From: an uncultured Victivallales bacterium
GTDB taxonomy: Bacteria > Verrucomicrobiota > Kiritimatiellia > UBA8416
Reading direction: 5' to 3'
NCBI GenBank assembly: GCA_964609395.1
Contig: CAZSRU010000007.1
Coordinates: 47-64,046 of the forward strand
Length of the DNA stretch: 64,000 nucleotides
The notes below the pieces were generated by a model. The model was not told the origin of the DNA. It was given only the letters and a program-made list of their open reading frames with translations, and did no database searches. Within the stretch, counting starts at the first letter, position 1; every line of letters begins with the position of its first letter. The translations under genes were made by a program, and so were the position numbers. Positions 2,052 to 50,710 of this stretch are shown in pieces.

Positions 2052-4880
2052 TTAGAGTAGGCTGACGGCATTCAGATTATGCGCGAGCAGCCGTTCGAGG
2101 ATGGCGTCGTCTGGGAGGTCGGCGGGCCAGCCGTAGGCGGCGGCGACGGCGGCGTCGAGGCGGGCATGGCAGTCGGCCAGCCAGGTGGGGCGGGCATTGT
2201 AGAGCTTGGTTAGGGTGCGGGACTTGCGCTCGGCAGCGCTCATGCCTTCCGGGGCCAGCCAGCGGTCGCGCTTGGCAACCAGATCCCGGGCAGCCTCGGC
2301 GATGGCGTCGGTCGCCGGCGGCAAGGGGAACGTCTCGAAACTGGTTGTCGGCGTGTAGCGGGGGCGGTCCTCAAGCCGGGTGCCCATACTCAGCGCCCAA
2401 ACCTCATGAATCCGGGAATGGAGGATACCGAAGAACGCATCATCGTCACGCGCGAAAACCAGCGTTCCTTGGTTACAGAGGACTTCGGCGGATACCCATA
2501 CAAACAGACGATGTTTTGACACGCCGGGTGTGGCGATATAGCGGGAAAGCCCTTGCAGCGCCGAACGCATCTCCGGTCGAGGCCGGGCATATTGCCACCA
2601 CATACCGCGATAGTCGTCGCGTCGTGTTTCCCGGACAGGCAAAACGTTGGCGCGTACATATTCGAACGGCTTCTCGTACTGGGCGGCTTCCTCGATCGGC
2701 ATGAGCGCAAAGTCGATTGTCCATTTGCAGCGTGATCCCTGGCCAATGTCCACGGCGCTGATGACCGGACGTACAACGTCCGAGTTCGGTTTGCCGTTAG
2801 GATTGCCCTTGTCGGCCAGCATCACGGCTGCCGTTTCCGCATCAATGTCGAATGGGGCTTTCGGGGATGGTCCCATAAAACAGATTCCCAAATTACCGGG
2901 AAGCGTCTTTGCCATTGTGATGTCGGCACACGACGTCAGGTTGGGATTGATGGCGGGCACCTCGCGGCCATCCAGGATTCGCGTTGTTTCGGTGCCGTAA
3001 TCGAAGGCAACCATGCTGACCCGGACATTCGCCCCGTCCAGAACCCAGGGCCGGTCGCTCTCCGCCCAGAAGATCCCGCCGCTATCCTGGATGCGTTTAA
3101 GGACTTCGCGGTTTGCCCCACCGCGTATGCCCTGTGTGGCGAGCAGTCCTGCGCGCTTGCATTTGCCGTCGGCGATATGCGCTCGGGCTTTCTCAAACCA
3201 GTAGCAGCAGAGGTCCGCGAAGGCGGGCACGCGCCCGGCATACAGCGAGAATAGGCGTTCAACGTAGTCGCCGCCGAGTTCCTGCCGGATGCGGTTGCCG
3301 CCCAGGAACGGCGGGTTGCCGATGATGAAGTCCACGGCAGGCCATTCCGGTTCAACAGGTTTACGACAGGCCGGTTCAGGAGATTCCGCATTCCGCGTTC
3401 CGCAATCCGCATTCACAACAATCGCGTCCATCAGACGGATATTCTCGGCGAGCGAGCGCAGGACCGGATCCGCCGAGAACCCGAAGCCGTTAGCGCGAAT
3501 CCATTGCAGCCAGCCGATCCAGACGGTCATCTGCGCGAGGTCATGCGCATAGGGATTCAGCTCGATACCGTAAAGCTGCCAGGGGCCTACTAGCGGCAGG
3601 AACGCACCGAGGCCGTTGTCGCTCCCGTATAGGATCACCTCTTTTTCCAGGTCCTTCAGTCGTAGCAAGGCCATGTAGAGGAAATTCCCGGAGCCACAGG
3701 CGGGGTCCAGCACCTTGACATGCTGCAGCCGGTCAAGGAACCGGTGCAGGATACTCGACGCCTCCCCCTGCGCCTTGCGCTTCGCCGCCGGAGTCATCGT
3801 TTTTGATGCTTTACTGTCTGCAGTCTTCAGTCTTCGGTCTTGAGTCTGCCCCAGTTTCTTCCCCGTTGCTAGCAGGTTCTCGATGGTTGTCCTAGTCTCG
3901 TCCCACTCACGGCGCAGGACCGACATCATCACGGCGTCCACGACAAGCTCGATATCGTCGCGGCTGGTGAAATGCGCGCCGAGTTGCGAGCGTTTGGCCG
4001 GGTCCAGTCCGCGCTCGAACAGGGTGCCGAAAATGGATGGATCAACCGCGCTCCAGTCGAGTGCCGCAGCGGTCGCGAACCGCTTGACAGCATCCATCGG
4101 CAGGTCAAGGACGCTGTGATCGTCGAACAGGCTCCCGTTGAAATGCCGGATGGACTCAAGCCCGAAGTCCCCGCCGGTCGCCATGGTCTCGAAAAGCTGT
4201 TCAAGCAGACGGGCAAAACGGGTTCTGTCACCCCCGGACTTTTCCAGGATGCGCGTGAACACGTTGTCCGGCAGCAGTCCGGCATCTTCCGCGAACAGGC
4301 AGAAGACAATCCGGTCGAGGAAATGCGCCACCGCCGCCGGGTCATTCCCTTGCTTGCGCAGCACATCGGCAATCTCCGCAATCTGCCTGGCCGCGTCCTG
4401 CGTGACGGCGGTACTAGTCCGCCCCGGCCGCAACACTTCCGGGTTATGGAATACCGCCCGCATGATCTCGATGTTTCGCGGTTTGGCCAGGGCTTCCAGT
4501 GGTATGTCGTGGGTGACTTCAACGGTGCCGGTGAAGTTGGTATGGATGACGATGCGGTCAAGATCGCAGACCAGCAGCAGGGGCGGATTTTCCAAAGCGC
4601 TGCGGTAGCGTAGAAGCTGGTCGTAGGCGGCGGCCAAGTCCTTGTGCCTGCCCTTGTACTCGATACCGAAAGCACCCCGCTTCCACACGTCCGCGAAACC
4701 GTCACCGCCGCCGTGCTTGGCCGCGCCCTTCTCGAAACAGAACGTTTCGCCGGTGGGATCCGCTGCGGCAGGCGTCGGGTGATCAAATACGCGGCACAGA
4801 TCGAGAAAATGTTCTTGCGCGGCGGAGCGCTCCTTCAGTTCAACCTTGCGCCATTTGGCAATGAATTCATTGATTGTCAT
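2052..4880 (-). CDS. MmeI-like bifunctional type IIL/IIG restriction-modification enzyme (N-terminal nuclease + N6-adenine DNA methyltransferase). Probable start is MTINEF at 4880; the 59-aa N-terminal extension in the ORF track is encoded by a tandem repeat.
   Basis: N-terminus MTINEFIAKWRKVELKERSAAQEHFLDLCRVF...GFADVWKRGAFGIEYKGRH resembles the MmeI family N-terminal endonuclease domain. GNPPFLGG (NPPF/Y motif IV) and a SAM-binding motif (LDPACGSGNFL) are present. Length is about 940 aa. Confidence 0.75.
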   Translation of the reverse strand: MTINEFIAKWRKVELKERSAAQEHFLDLCRVFDHPTPAAADPTGETFCFEKGAAKHGGGDGFADVWKRGAFGIEYKGRHKDLAAAYDQLLRYRSALENPPLLLVCDLDRIVIHTNFTGTVEVTHDIPLEALAKPRNIEIMRAVFHNPEVLRPGRTSTAVTQDAARQIAEIADVLRKQGNDPAAVAHFLDRIVFCLFAEDAGLLPDNVFTRILEKSGGDRTRFARLLEQLFETMATGGDFGLESIRHFNGSLFDDHSVLDLPMDAVKRFATAAALDWSAVDPSIFGTLFERGLDPAKRSQLGAHFTSRDDIELVVDAVMMSVLRREWDETRTTIENLLATGKKLGQTQDRRLKTADSKASKTMTPAAKRKAQGEASSILHRFLDRLQHVKVLDPACGSGNFLYMALLRLKDLEKEVILYGSDNGLGAFLPLVGPWQLYGIELNPYAHDLAQMTVWIGWLQWIRANGFGFSADPVLRSLAENIRLMDAIVVNADCGTRNAESPEPACRKPVEPEWPAVDFIIGNPPFLGGNRIRQELGGDYVERLFSLYAGRVPAFADLCCYWFEKARAHIADGKCKRAGLLATQGIRGGANREVLKRIQDSGGIFWAESDRPWVLDGANVRVSMVAFDYGTETTRILDGREVPAINPNLTSCADITMAKTLPGNLGICFMGPSPKAPFDIDAETAAVMLADKGNPNGKPNSDVVRPVISAVDIGQGSRCKWTIDFALMPIEEAAQYEKPFEYVRANVLPVRETRRDDYRGMWWQYARPRPEMRSALQGLSRYIATPGVSKHRLFVWVSAEVLCNQGTLVFARDDDAFFGILHSRIHEVWALSMGTRLEDRPRYTPTTSFETFPLPPATDAIAEAARDLVAKRDRWLAPEGMSAAERKSRTLTKLYNARPTWLADCHARLDAAVAAAYGWPADLPDDAILERLLAHNLNAVSLL

Positions 4881-10514: not shown

Positions 10515-11342
10515 ATGGACATGCCGCTCATGGAAACCGCGTTTGCCGCCGTCGCCAAGACGCTTGACATTGAACAGGCCGATACAGCCCTGATCCTCGG
10601 TTCCGGCTGGAGCGAGGCGGCCGACGCCTTCTCCCCCTCGTCCGAAATCCCCTACAGCGCGATTCCCGGTATGGGGACCACCGGCGTCGCCGGCCATGAA
10701 GGCCGCCTGCGCGTCGCCACCATCGGCAACCGCCGCCTGCTCATCTTCCAGGGACGCCACCACTGGTACGAGGGCCAAGGCTGGACGCCCGTCGGCCTGC
10801 CCGTCTTCATCGCCGCCCGCGCCGGCGTGCGAACCCTGTTGCTGACCAATGCCGCTGGCGGCATCAACCCGTCGTTCGCACCCGGCGACCTGATGCTGGT
10901 GACCGACCACATCAACGCCATCGGCACCAATCCCCTCGTCGGACCGCGCGACGCCCGCTGGGGCGAGCGCTTCCCCGACCAGAGCCACCTCTACGATCCG
11001 GGCCTGCTCGATCACCTGCGCCGGTCCGCCCGCGAGACCGGCATTGCCGTGCGCGAGGGCATCTACCTCGCCACCTCCGGCCCCTGCTACGAGACACCGG
11101 CGGAAGTCCGCGTCTTCCGCGGCATGGGGGCCGACGCCGTCGGCATGTCCACCGTGCCCGAAGCCATCCTCGCCGGGGCTGCCGGCATGCGCGTCGGGGC
11201 CATCTCCTGCATCACCAACCCGGCGGCCGGGGTCGATTCCGCCGCCACGCTCGCCCATGCCGACGTGCTCGACGCCGGACGCCGGGCCATGCCCGCCATG
11301 ACCACCCTGCTGCACCACGCGGTAACCCATGCAAACGCCTGA
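10515..11342 (+). CDS. punA: Purine nucleoside phosphorylase (PNP family I, PunA/XapA-like).
   Basis: ILGSGWS...GHEGRLRVATIGNRRLLIFQGRHHWYEGQG matches trimeric PNP motifs. SD gagagga is upstream. Confidence 0.85.
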   Translation: MDMPLMETAFAAVAKTLDIEQADTALILGSGWSEAADAFSPSSEIPYSAIPGMGTTGVAGHEGRLRVATIGNRRLLIFQGRHHWYEGQGWTPVGLPVFIAARAGVRTLLLTNAAGGINPSFAPGDLMLVTDHINAIGTNPLVGPRDARWGERFPDQSHLYDPGLLDHLRRSARETGIAVREGIYLATSGPCYETPAEVRVFRGMGADAVGMSTVPEAILAGAAGMRVGAISCITNPAAGVDSAATLAHADVLDAGRRAMPAMTTLLHHAVTHANA

Positions 11343-12675
11343 CCCCACACCCGCCACGCCGCCAGACGACCTGCGCCAGGGCGCGCTCGACGTCGCCCGC
11401 CGCCTGCGCGAGGCCGGCTACACCGCCTACTGGGCGGGGGGCTGCGTGCGCGACATGCTGCTCGGCCGCGAGCCGCGCGACTACGACATCGCTACTGACG
11501 CCGTCCCGGACGCCGTCCTCGCGTGCTTTCCCGGGGGCTGCACGGTCGGCAAGAACTTCGCCGTGGTGATTGTTCCCTGGAAGGGGCTGGCCTTCGAGGT
11601 CGCCACCTTCCGGCAGGATCACGGCACCGACGACGGACGCCACCCCGCCGCGATCTCGTTTGCCACCCCGCCGGAGGATGCCGCCCGGCGCGACTTCACC
11701 GTCAATGCCATGTTCCACGACCCCGTCGACGGCAGCGTGCATGACTATGTCGGCGGGCGCGCCGATCTCGCGGCCCGGCTGATCCGCTGCGTCGGCGATC
11801 CCGACCGTCGCTTCGGCGAGGATCACCTGCGCCTGCTGCGGGCCGTGCGCTTCGCCACCACGCTCGACTTCGCGATCGAGCCCGCCACGGCGGCCGCCAT
11901 CCTGCGCAACGCCCCCTCCATCGCGCGCATCAGCATCGAGCGCGTGCGCGACGAATTCACCCGCACCCTGCTCGAGGCCCGCCAGCCCGGCCAGGCCCTG
12001 CGCCTGCTCGACCAGCTCGGGTTGCTCGAGGTCTTCCTGCCGGAGGTCTCCGCCCTTAAATATCAGGAACAGCCGCCCGAATTCCACCCCGAGGGCGATG
12101 TCTTCACCCACACGGCCATGATGCTCGACGCCATGCAGGTGCGCTCTGCCGCCCTTGCCTACGCCGTGCTGCTCCACGACATCGCCAAGCCGGCCACCGC
12201 CTTCCACGACGGGCAGCGGCTGCGCTTTCACGGCCATGCCGAGCACGGGGCCCGCATGGCGGAGAAAATCCTGCGGCGGCTGCGCCTCCCCAACCGGGTC
12301 ATCGAGGAAGTCACCGCCTGCGTCGGGCGGCACATGCGGTTCATGGATGTGCGCAAAATGCGCCGATCCACCCTGCGCCAGCTTGTCGGTTCGCCAACCT
12401 TCGAGACCGAGCTGGAACTGCACCGGCTCGACTGCATTGCCTGCCACGGCCTGATGGAGAACCACGACTTCCTCTGCCAGGCCCGCGACGCCTTCGCCAG
12501 CGAGCCTGTGCTACCGAAGCCCTGGGTCAACGGCCGCGACCTCATCGCCCTGGGCGTCCCGCCCGGCCCCCGCATCGGCGCCCTGCTCAAAACCGCCTAC
12601 GAACTCCAACTCGAAGGCACCCACCCCGACCGCCAGGCCCTGCTCGCCCACATGCGAAACCACCTCGCGCCATAG
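11329..12675 (+). CDS. cca: CCA tRNA nucleotidyltransferase / poly(A) polymerase family protein with an HD domain. It overlaps the PNP gene by 14 nt.
   Basis: GYTAYWAGGCVRDMLLGREPRDYDIATDA is the polymerase-beta head motif. A downstream HD motif (LLHDIAKP...HGHAEHG) is present. Confidence 0.8.
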   Translation: MQTPDPTPATPPDDLRQGALDVARRLREAGYTAYWAGGCVRDMLLGREPRDYDIATDAVPDAVLACFPGGCTVGKNFAVVIVPWKGLAFEVATFRQDHGTDDGRHPAAISFATPPEDAARRDFTVNAMFHDPVDGSVHDYVGGRADLAARLIRCVGDPDRRFGEDHLRLLRAVRFATTLDFAIEPATAAAILRNAPSIARISIERVRDEFTRTLLEARQPGQALRLLDQLGLLEVFLPEVSALKYQEQPPEFHPEGDVFTHTAMMLDAMQVRSAALAYAVLLHDIAKPATAFHDGQRLRFHGHAEHGARMAEKILRRLRLPNRVIEEVTACVGRHMRFMDVRKMRRSTLRQLVGSPTFETELELHRLDCIACHGLMENHDFLCQARDAFASEPVLPKPWVNGRDLIALGVPPGPRIGALLKTAYELQLEGTHPDRQALLAHMRNHLAP

Positions 12676-12717
12676 CCGAGCGTCGGCTGGAGCGGGGATC
12701 ACCACCCTTAAAACAAA

Positions 12718-13058
12718 AGGGTCTTCCGCAGAATCTGTGGGTGGCTTCCCCTGTCCATGTATGACCGACGAAGCGGGTGGATTAAGCGTAACCAAGTAAG
12801 AGTGAGTTTAAGTGTGCGTTCAAGTGTGGGACTAAGTGTTCTGTTCCAACACTTCATCGCACACTTATTCCCAGACTTAATTACACCCTTAGTTGGTTAC
12901 GCTTAAACCACTGTCTTTATCGTTCCCGGCAGCCCACATAATCCTGATACAACATAATTCCGCCCATTCTACATTACAATTGCCACGATATCTACGCCAA
13001 CAGGCCTGATTGGCACCGCCCCGTGATTTTATCTACCCACAGATTCTGCGGAAGACCC
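12718..13058. mobile_element. MITE-like non-coding element (~340 bp). It has 25-bp perfect terminal inverted repeats (gggtcttccgcagaatctgtgggtg), a central ~135-bp imperfect palindrome, and a flanking direct repeat AAACAAAA(A)G that is consistent with a target-site duplication.
   Basis: Left TIR at 12718-12742. Right TIR at 13034-13058 is its exact reverse complement. Flank aaacaaaag is at 12711-12719 and aaacaaaaag at 13059-13068. Nested inverted repeats are gtggattaagcgtaaccaa/ttggttacgcttaaaccac and agtgtgcg/cgcacact. The interior is AT-richer than the flanks. Confidence 0.55.
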
Positions 13059-13097
13059 AAACAAAAAGCCGCCCTTCCCCTGCGGGAAGAGCGGCTC
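13059..13097 (-). terminator. Rho-independent terminator of glnN. The hairpin is agccgcccttccc-ctgc-gggaagagcggct, followed on the minus strand by TTTTTGTTT.
   Basis: The stem-loop lies 20 nt after the glnN stop. The U-tract on the transcribed strand is the complement of aaacaaaaa at 13059-13067. Confidence 0.55.
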
Positions 13098-13116: not shown

Positions 13117-15240
<2,124 letters not shown>

Positions 15241-50183: not shown

Positions 50184-50480
50184 GGGTGGTTTTCCTTGTT
50201 TGCAAAGTCGTTGGGGTTACGTCCTTGCAACATATCACCGTAGCGCGTGTGGCGTCTATTCCAAATTATTTGAGGGCACACTCCACCCTTCCCGGCATTC
50301 AGAACCGGGTTTTTCGATGCGTCTGCGGCTGGCCTTGGCGTTTGCTCTGGCTGTTCTTCTTGCAGCCCCAGTCGCAGTTGATTGGCAAATCAGCCAGATT
50401 GGCCTCCAGATCGCGTTCGAGTTGCTGTTGCAGGCGTTTAGTTCCGTTGGTTCGGAGCTGAAGCAATATACCTTATAAAA

Positions 50481-50524
50481 CCCCTCGCTGTGCCCGGCTT
50501 CAAGCGGGCACAGCGAGGGGTTTT
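50481..50524. terminator. Bidirectional intrinsic terminator: 16-bp perfect stem cccctcgctgtgcccg/cgggcacagcgagggg flanked by AAAA (5') and TTTT (3').
   Basis: Read directly. It follows a small signal-peptide-like ORF (50318-50478) and lies between the R-M locus and gcvH. Confidence 0.55.
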
Positions 50525-50710
50525 GCAAGAGCCTCATTTGTAATGTTTTTGGCTTTTACGTGAATCAATCAGTATATTTTTAATGGTTTCTGATTTTTTG
50601 TTGTTGACGAGTTGTCCGCAGTGTGATGAAAGGTGCGTGCATTCTGATTGTGCAGGCGCGGTAGCGACCTGCCCCGAACAACCCCGAGCAGACCGGAGAG
50701 AGGAGCAAGC

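Follow-up and report, generated by a model that had tools for sequence, protein, structure and literature searches.

What occupies the gap between two convergent genes in this 64-kb stretch of DNA (hereafter the window), and is it host sequence or a mobile element? The gap, 441 nt of non-coding DNA, runs from the stop of a cca-type gene (12675) to that of glnN (13117). The former (11329-12675, plus strand) encodes a 448-aa PolyA_pol/HD protein of the CCA-adding/poly(A) polymerase family, the latter (13117-15210, minus strand) a type III glutamine synthetase, and these family matches confirm the convergent flanks that the first-pass annotation had named. The best named relatives of both genes come from Verrucomicrobia, Kiritimatiellia and Lentisphaerae MAGs, which places the host in the PVC group. 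For the 707-aa glnN product, read from a TTG start, we found no exact record; JGI (3300020048, Ga0207193_1000529) calls a 697-aa form. The same annotation had placed a MITE in this gap, and our analysis bears it out: window 12719-13058 is very probably an ISL3-family MITE, a non-autonomous transposable element 340 bp long and non-coding, whose end is that of ISL3 elements, which carries an 8-bp target duplication and which has homologous short copies at unrelated loci.

The element is bounded by 24-nt terminal inverted repeats (TIRs), GGGTCTTCCGCAGAATCTGTGGGT, whose left copy (12719-12742, plus strand) and right copy (13035-13058, minus strand) are exact reverse complements at 24/24 bp. Position 25 is unpaired (G12743 vs T13034); the repeats had been described as 25 bp starting at 12718, bounding a 341-bp unit, and while their perfection and the element itself stand, the start moves and the lengths shrink by one base. 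Dinucleotide-preserving shuffles of the window gave no TIR match, even with up to 3 mismatches allowed. Both TIRs are directly abutted by the perfect 8-mer AAACAAAA (12711-12718 and 13059-13066), so that the direct repeat holds as a target-site duplication at 8 bp and not at the 9-10 bp first proposed, the longer version differing between the two sides. Across the 64-kb window, a TIR search (up to 3 mismatches) and blastn with the element returned only the element itself. Its base composition also sets it apart: G+C is 48% overall and 42-48% in 100-nt windows of the interior, against 65-73% in the flanks and 62% in the whole window, i.e., about 14 points under the window average, and all copies that we examined show the same offset (48-52% vs 56-64% in the host flanks). 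Pfam search of the element's ORFs gave no match and no reading frame is conserved between copies, in agreement with the AT-richer, non-coding interior noted from the letters. We considered a small protein and rejected it, since the frames are not conserved and the substitutions that separate the window copy from its relative at locus L058 in a shared open frame are, by eye, mostly amino-acid changing.

The family assignment comes from the ends. An exact scan of one genome per GTDB species recovered the first 19 nt of the TIR in at least 92 stretches, which, among the matches listed, belong to Victivallales/Lentisphaerae, Kiritimatiellae, Verrucomicrobiota, Planctomycetota, Vicinamibacterales (Acidobacteriota) and scattered other phyla. 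Among these listed matches, a great many TIR cores lie no more than about 50 nt from the end of a contig, which is to be expected because repeats break short-read assemblies. In long-read MAGs, the TIRs are paired about 1.58-1.9 kb apart and enclose ORFs of 416-418 aa, which match Pfam DDE_Tnp_ISL3 (PF01610; 2.8e-73, 1.5e-75) together with ISL3 HTH and Zn-ribbon domains. One such TIR-bounded ISL3 element (L002, 5569-7147) is present in many identical copies in a single Vicinamibacterales MAG. The left inverted repeat (IRL) of autonomous ISL3 elements (L002, L033, L077) is identical to the window TIR at 24/24 positions, whereas their right inverted repeat (IRR; L002 7124-7147, L077 3726-3749) differs from it at 4-5 positions. 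This right repeat overlaps the C-terminus and stop codon of the transposase (ACC CAC AGA TTC TGC TGA, i.e., THRFC*; the C-termini read THRFC* or THKFC*). The autonomous transposases are only 52-65% identical to one another, yet the 24-nt end is conserved across phyla, which the coding constraint on a right repeat that encodes the transposase C-terminus may help to explain.

The target site points the same way. Of 31 TIR pairs in other genomes, 24 lie between perfect 8-bp duplications, whether the element is full-length or short, and the centre of the duplicated target is rich in A+T (74-88% over positions -6 to -3). An 8-bp target duplication at AT-rich targets is the textbook ISL3 signature, which AAACAAAA fits. 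Matching TIR, 8-bp duplication, small size and absence of coding capacity, as expected of an ISL3-derived MITE, are all found here. The window element differs from an ISL3 insertion sequence in having no transposase, in carrying the IRL type at both ends where autonomous copies have a distinct IRR, and in sharing nothing with them beyond the terminal 24-28 nt. The restriction of the match to these 24-28 nt rules out a deleted transposase gene as the origin of the core. No ISL3 transposase was found in the 64-kb window by tblastn, nor any Pfam match or conserved ORF within the element, which is therefore a non-autonomous ISL3-type element. The clearest autonomous copies lie in Acidobacteriota and Planctomycetota, and TIR matches in PVC-group MAGs are mostly at contig ends; full-length ISL3 partners in the PVC-group MAGs are thus something we infer. 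The TIR is absent from viral contigs. A named IS could not be given to the element, as the nearest annotated plasmid ISL3 (Paraburkholderia, 58% amino-acid identity) is without this TIR.

The insertion lies at the end of the glnN transcription unit. On the minus strand, 13097->13066 forms the glnN intrinsic terminator, a hairpin of 14 pairs (9 of them G-C) with a 4-nt loop and the tail TTTGTTTGGG; it is host sequence outside the element, and the right copy of the duplication (13059-13066), read on this strand, is its U-tract, as had been proposed. The earlier statement that the element is inserted in the terminator is right as to position, and needs amending as to its consequence: the duplication regenerates the U-tract beside the hairpin, which is still followed by UUUUUGUUU, so that the terminator was probably not disabled. 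The target AAACAAAA is one of few AT-rich 8-mers in a 62% G+C genome. An empty site was sought on both sides. In relatives whose cca is 92-94% identical, the match ends precisely at the stop codon and other genes follow, and where glnN is 87-94% identical the neighbours differ too; these glnN relatives possess analogous terminators of hairpin and U-tract without the element. From the duplication we predicted the empty-site junction as ...CCCTTAAAACAAAAAGCCGCCC... (spanning form ...CACCCTTAAAACAAAAAGCCGCCCTT...), and the 22-mer gave 0 matches in an exact scan of the metagenome contig collection. Because the neighbours of the relatives differ and homology reaches exactly as far as the stop codons, the position of the element is a synteny breakpoint. 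The cca/glnN junction itself is specific to this lineage when compared with L096-L101 and L107-L109. In L107, the closest (94%) relative, the DNA just past the glnN terminator (about 4720-4830) forms a periodic palindrome of another kind, with some 5 CCAACA/TGTTGG units in each arm; hairpins built of short tandem units seem to be common in this lineage.

Between the TIRs, the element contains a hairpin. The first-pass annotation had described an imperfect palindrome of about 135 bp (12777-12912); the palindrome is real and extends further, over the 163 nt of 12763-12925. Its left arm (12763-12840, plus strand) and right arm (12848-12925, plus strand) are 74% complementary and flank a 7-nt loop (12841-12847, plus strand), and each arm is composed of units of about 12 nt, AAGTGTG followed by 5 variable nt. 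The predicted fold is strong on either strand, with a minimum free energy of -75.3 kcal/mol on the plus and -76.1 kcal/mol on the minus strand (z = -8.0 and -8.8). A short subterminal spacer (12743-12762, plus strand) joins the left TIR to the hairpin; it is conserved in L058 and L044 and aligns with the left end of a larger, gene-carrying relative at L104. On the other side, a conserved 'tail' (12926-13034, minus strand) leads to the right TIR. In eight divergent copies, 91.6% of arm cells are paired and 12 of 51 pairs have changed on both sides, values reached in 0 of 500 shuffles, and slid controls are paired at 31-40%. In these eight family members compensatory changes maintain the base-pairing of right arm with left, even where the arms stand about 760 nt apart around a gene, which shows the complementarity to have been kept, presumably by selection or by homogenisation. 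The counts of G.U and A.C cells, 15 vs 10, indicate no strand of a putative RNA. Searches of Rfam gave no family at gathering score, returning generic hairpin (miRNA-precursor) matches of 19-28 bits against cut-offs of 79-100.

The origin of this core is indicated by larger relatives. At L104 (4610->3510, 1101 bp) we found the TIRs, subterminal spacer, arms and tail in the same arrangement as in the window element, with 767 nt between the arms where the window has 7. This interval holds, on the opposite strand, a 253-aa ORF for a tandem '23S rRNA-intervening sequence protein'/four-helix-bundle protein (PF05635, 2.7e-24, in two matched stretches; TIGR02436, 5.5e-20). As judged from the sequence, the likely ribosome-binding site follows directly on the end of one arm, and the stop codon marks the start of the other. 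The left arm of the window copy is homologous to the arm just 3' of this stop codon in L104, L110 and L112, and the tail is upstream of the passenger gene in the same three loci. The L104 protein has 832 homologues at E <= 1e-5, and among the matches listed most are on contigs of about 1-2 kb, which points to a repeat. The relatives differ in how much of the vehicle they keep: L110 (1380-2335) has gene and arms and no recognisable TIRs, while L112 (1410-2360), L113 and L117 have one good and, by eye, one decayed TIR. At L091, the loop still has both ends of the PF05635 ORF, as an intermediate of deletion might. With neither gene nor TIRs, the arm module is present at L091 7531-7713 and L005 4776-4854 as well; found thus without ISL3 TIRs, it exists apart from the MITE. 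Other TIR-associated PF05635 genes show a similar design with different sequence. L009 (1750-2409) is a 660-bp TIR-bounded PF05635 unit with the 8-bp duplication AAATTAAT, and its gene, like that of L005 (6872-7258), is bracketed by unrelated inverted repeats that are also made of short periodic units, of the GTACGAG type in L009 and L005 vs the 12-nt AAGTGTG type in L104, L110 and L112. By sequence comparison, then, the core of the window element is a gene-less form of a passenger cassette and not the remnant of a transposase. Hairpin modules of the window type without ISL3 TIRs were also seen at L103 (105-350) and L105 (1671-1825), and in L088 and L103 the loop holds an extra, GC-rich secondary palindrome of about 135 nt. 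No publication connecting PF05635 genes with periodic inverted repeats and ISL3 ends turned up in the library that was searched in full text, which is no proof of novelty.

In the sense used by ISfinder, these larger relatives count as mobile insertion cassettes. Mobile insertion cassettes (MICs) are TIR-bounded non-autonomous elements with passenger genes, such as MIC231 of Bacillus cereus, and L104 (1101 bp) and L009 (660 bp, with its 8-bp duplication) are likewise bounded by ISL3 TIRs and carry PF05635 as their only passenger. The window copy departs from this type by having lost its passenger, and MIC231 belongs to a different IS family. Among bacterial MITEs whose hairpins affect transcripts are the Correia elements of Neisseria and the enterobacterial ERIC/REP-type repeats. 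These are, like the window element, small, non-coding and TIR-bounded, have a target duplication, lie in intergenic DNA near terminators and can form a long RNA stem-loop. They differ in transposase family and end sequence, and the hairpin described here is internal, separate from the TIRs, and known from sequence alone.

Transcription of the window hairpin could come from either side. A promoter-like site (TAGATA-17-TAGAAT) lies in the tail on the minus strand, 12994->12966; it is a match to a sigma-70-like consensus only, and its -10-like GTAGAAT is partly conserved in the gene-carrying relatives, there upstream of the passenger gene. If active, the site would transcribe the hairpin and run antisense into the 3' end of cca. 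Where relatives carry the gene, the cassette is read from the opposite strand, which corresponds to the glnN direction. The first-pass annotation had suggested a structured RNA made by read-through from cca; the hairpin of the window copy is most likely a relic and at most would add a stable stem-loop to any read-through transcript from cca. The effect of the element at this locus is probably small, given its place between two convergent gene ends and the U-tract restored by the duplication.

Short copies resembling that of the window occur elsewhere. The closest, L058 1727-2073 in a Victivallales MAG, is 83% identical to the whole 340 bp from end to end; the two agree at the arm-loop-arm junction (GTGTTYTGTTCCAACAC), and L058 lies in unrelated flanks with a perfect 8-bp duplication of its own, ATAAAACC. 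More distant copies were found at L091 84-471 (Kiritimatiellae), at L088 (Verrucomicrobiota), in parts of L057 and L044, and at metagenome loci L102-L106. The genome and metagenome scans returned no copy more than 83% identical to the window element; the metagenome scan with the family pattern yielded 5 loci only, among which the window's own contig is not found, so that it says little on copy number. That two independent insertion sites have this junction in common speaks for mobilisation of the short form as such, as opposed to its origin by deletion at this locus, and hence for its spread. Two other, independent assemblies of this genome break off within the element, contig k141_271671 at window 12857 and a Logan contig at 12744. 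If k is 141 for the former, as its name suggests, and 31 for Logan, these ends would lie 1-4 nt from the de Bruijn branch point expected for a repeat starting at 12719, which suggests indirectly that more than one context exists for the element, or for its left 140 nt at the least, in the samples behind those assemblies.

Taken together, these observations suggest the following course of events. An ISL3 transposase encoded elsewhere in the genome would bind both IRL-type ends, cut an AT-rich target with an 8-bp stagger and insert the element there; in this case the target would be AAACAAAA, the U-tract of the glnN intrinsic terminator. The resulting target duplication would leave a U-tract after the hairpin, and glnN termination would probably be unaffected. 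In the ancestral arrangement, as represented by the larger relatives with the same TIRs, two 78-nt arms would bracket the ribosome-binding site and ORF of a PF05635 protein; in the window copy the gene would be gone and its arms joined by the 7-nt loop into the 163-nt hairpin. This gene-less short form would then have spread, as its presence with the same junction at an unrelated locus in another genome suggests.

Two other histories of the locus were weighed against that of a mobilised short form. The stretch might be a chance or host-derived intergenic palindrome with fortuitous poly-A flanks rather than mobile DNA, a reading that can appeal to the A-rich, low-complexity duplication, to the single copy in the window and to the fact that no empty site was recovered. 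It would leave to coincidence a TIR identical at 24/24 positions to ISL3 ends and present in at least 92 stretches of other genomes, 8-bp duplications in 24 of 31 independent pairs, a homologous element at the unrelated locus L058, a G+C content about 14 points below the window average, and the absence of the element 3' of the glnN terminator in relatives; we regard it as effectively refuted. Alternatively, a cassette like that of L104, or a full IS, may have inserted here and been internally deleted later, so that the 340-bp form never transposed. Larger relatives of identical architecture do exist (the 1101-bp L104, and L102/L106), and L091, with both ORF ends, has the look of an intermediate in such a deletion. 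Against this stands L058, where the short form with the same junction, GTGTTYTGTTCCAACAC, is found at an unrelated locus with a different 8-bp duplication; either the deletion is older than two or more insertions, or it was the short form itself that was transferred and inserted. Decay in place is for this reason a very unlikely account of the window copy.

More is to be said for the view that the hairpin, and not the MITE, is the functional unit. Here the 163-nt structure would be selected as RNA (or DNA), like the stem of an ORF-bearing intervening sequence (IVS), acting through RNase III processing or through stabilisation or termination of transcripts, whether on cca read-through or on a minus-strand transcript of its own, and the ISL3 TIRs would be a vehicle only. 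Pairing kept across eight divergent copies, including those with arms about 760 nt apart, would follow from such selection, as would the strong fold on both strands (z about -8 to -9); the module occurs without ISL3 TIRs (L091 7531-7713, L110, L005 4776-4854), other PF05635 genes (L009, L005) lie within unrelated periodic inverted repeats, and known IVSs are stems around an S23p ORF that are cut by RNase III (PMC4990558). However, homogenisation at the DNA level can also produce compensatory change in inverted repeats, the ratio of G.U to A.C (15 vs 10) identifies no transcribed strand, and no Rfam family reaches its gathering score. In addition, the window copy has lost the enclosed gene and sits between convergent gene ends, where little regulation is expected. 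We therefore consider this reading rather unlikely for the window copy. Its more specific variant, in which the core is the ORF-less form of a self-contained module of stem plus S23p/PF05635 gene, built like an ORF-bearing IVS and travelling in ISL3-type TIRs, is in our view doubtful, and is put forward tentatively.

The comparison with IVSs that underlies this variant has clear limits. IVSs occupy helix 9, 25 or 45 of 23S rRNA, and the window element, located between the coding genes cca and glnN and without an ORF, is ruled out as a 23S rRNA IVS. Complementary termini that form a long stem, which define IVSs with or without an S23p ORF, are nonetheless found at 12763-12925. The relatives enclose a PF05635 gene between long complementary arms, the window copy has the arms only, as ORF-less IVSs do, and in both cases G+C is under that of the host. 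Unlike an IVS, the element is outside an rRNA gene, its arms (74-78 nt) consist of 12-nt units, it is TIR-bounded with a target duplication, and it is described here at the level of DNA sequence. In the ORF-bearing 23S rRNA IVSs of Coxiella and Leptospira, the S23p ORF lies inside a stem that is cut by RNase III, and IVSs have been proposed to be remnants of transposition or mobile elements (PMC4990558).

The ISL3-type MITE reading has consequences beyond this locus. It adds a hitherto undescribed lineage of MITEs from uncultured bacteria of the PVC group, with an end sequence that is common, base for base, to ISL3 elements in Acidobacteriota, Planctomycetota and other phyla; this sequence is a useful annotation marker and explains why MAG contigs so often end there. 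The core ties '23S rRNA IVS protein' genes enclosed in long compensating stems to a defined transposon vehicle, so that the movement of IVS-type modules becomes testable. If the module variant were true, it would provide a concrete route, by a DDE transposon, for the spread of IVS-type modules, a question open since the 1990s (hypotheses in PMC4990558), and the periodic arms would be a functional RNA stem, i.e., an RNase III substrate or an mRNA panhandle, and not just transposon debris.

Two further palindromes were observed in the window. An intergenic one of 98 bp at 1786-1883 has perfect 25-nt arms (TGGAGGGCGAGCGTCCTCGCGAGCC and its complement) around a 48-nt loop and could represent a further small repeat element or else a structured RNA. 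The other, a hairpin at 50472-50529, has 25-nt arms that are 92% complementary, a loop of 8 nt and A/T-rich shoulders to left and right, and resembles an intrinsic terminator that acts in both directions.
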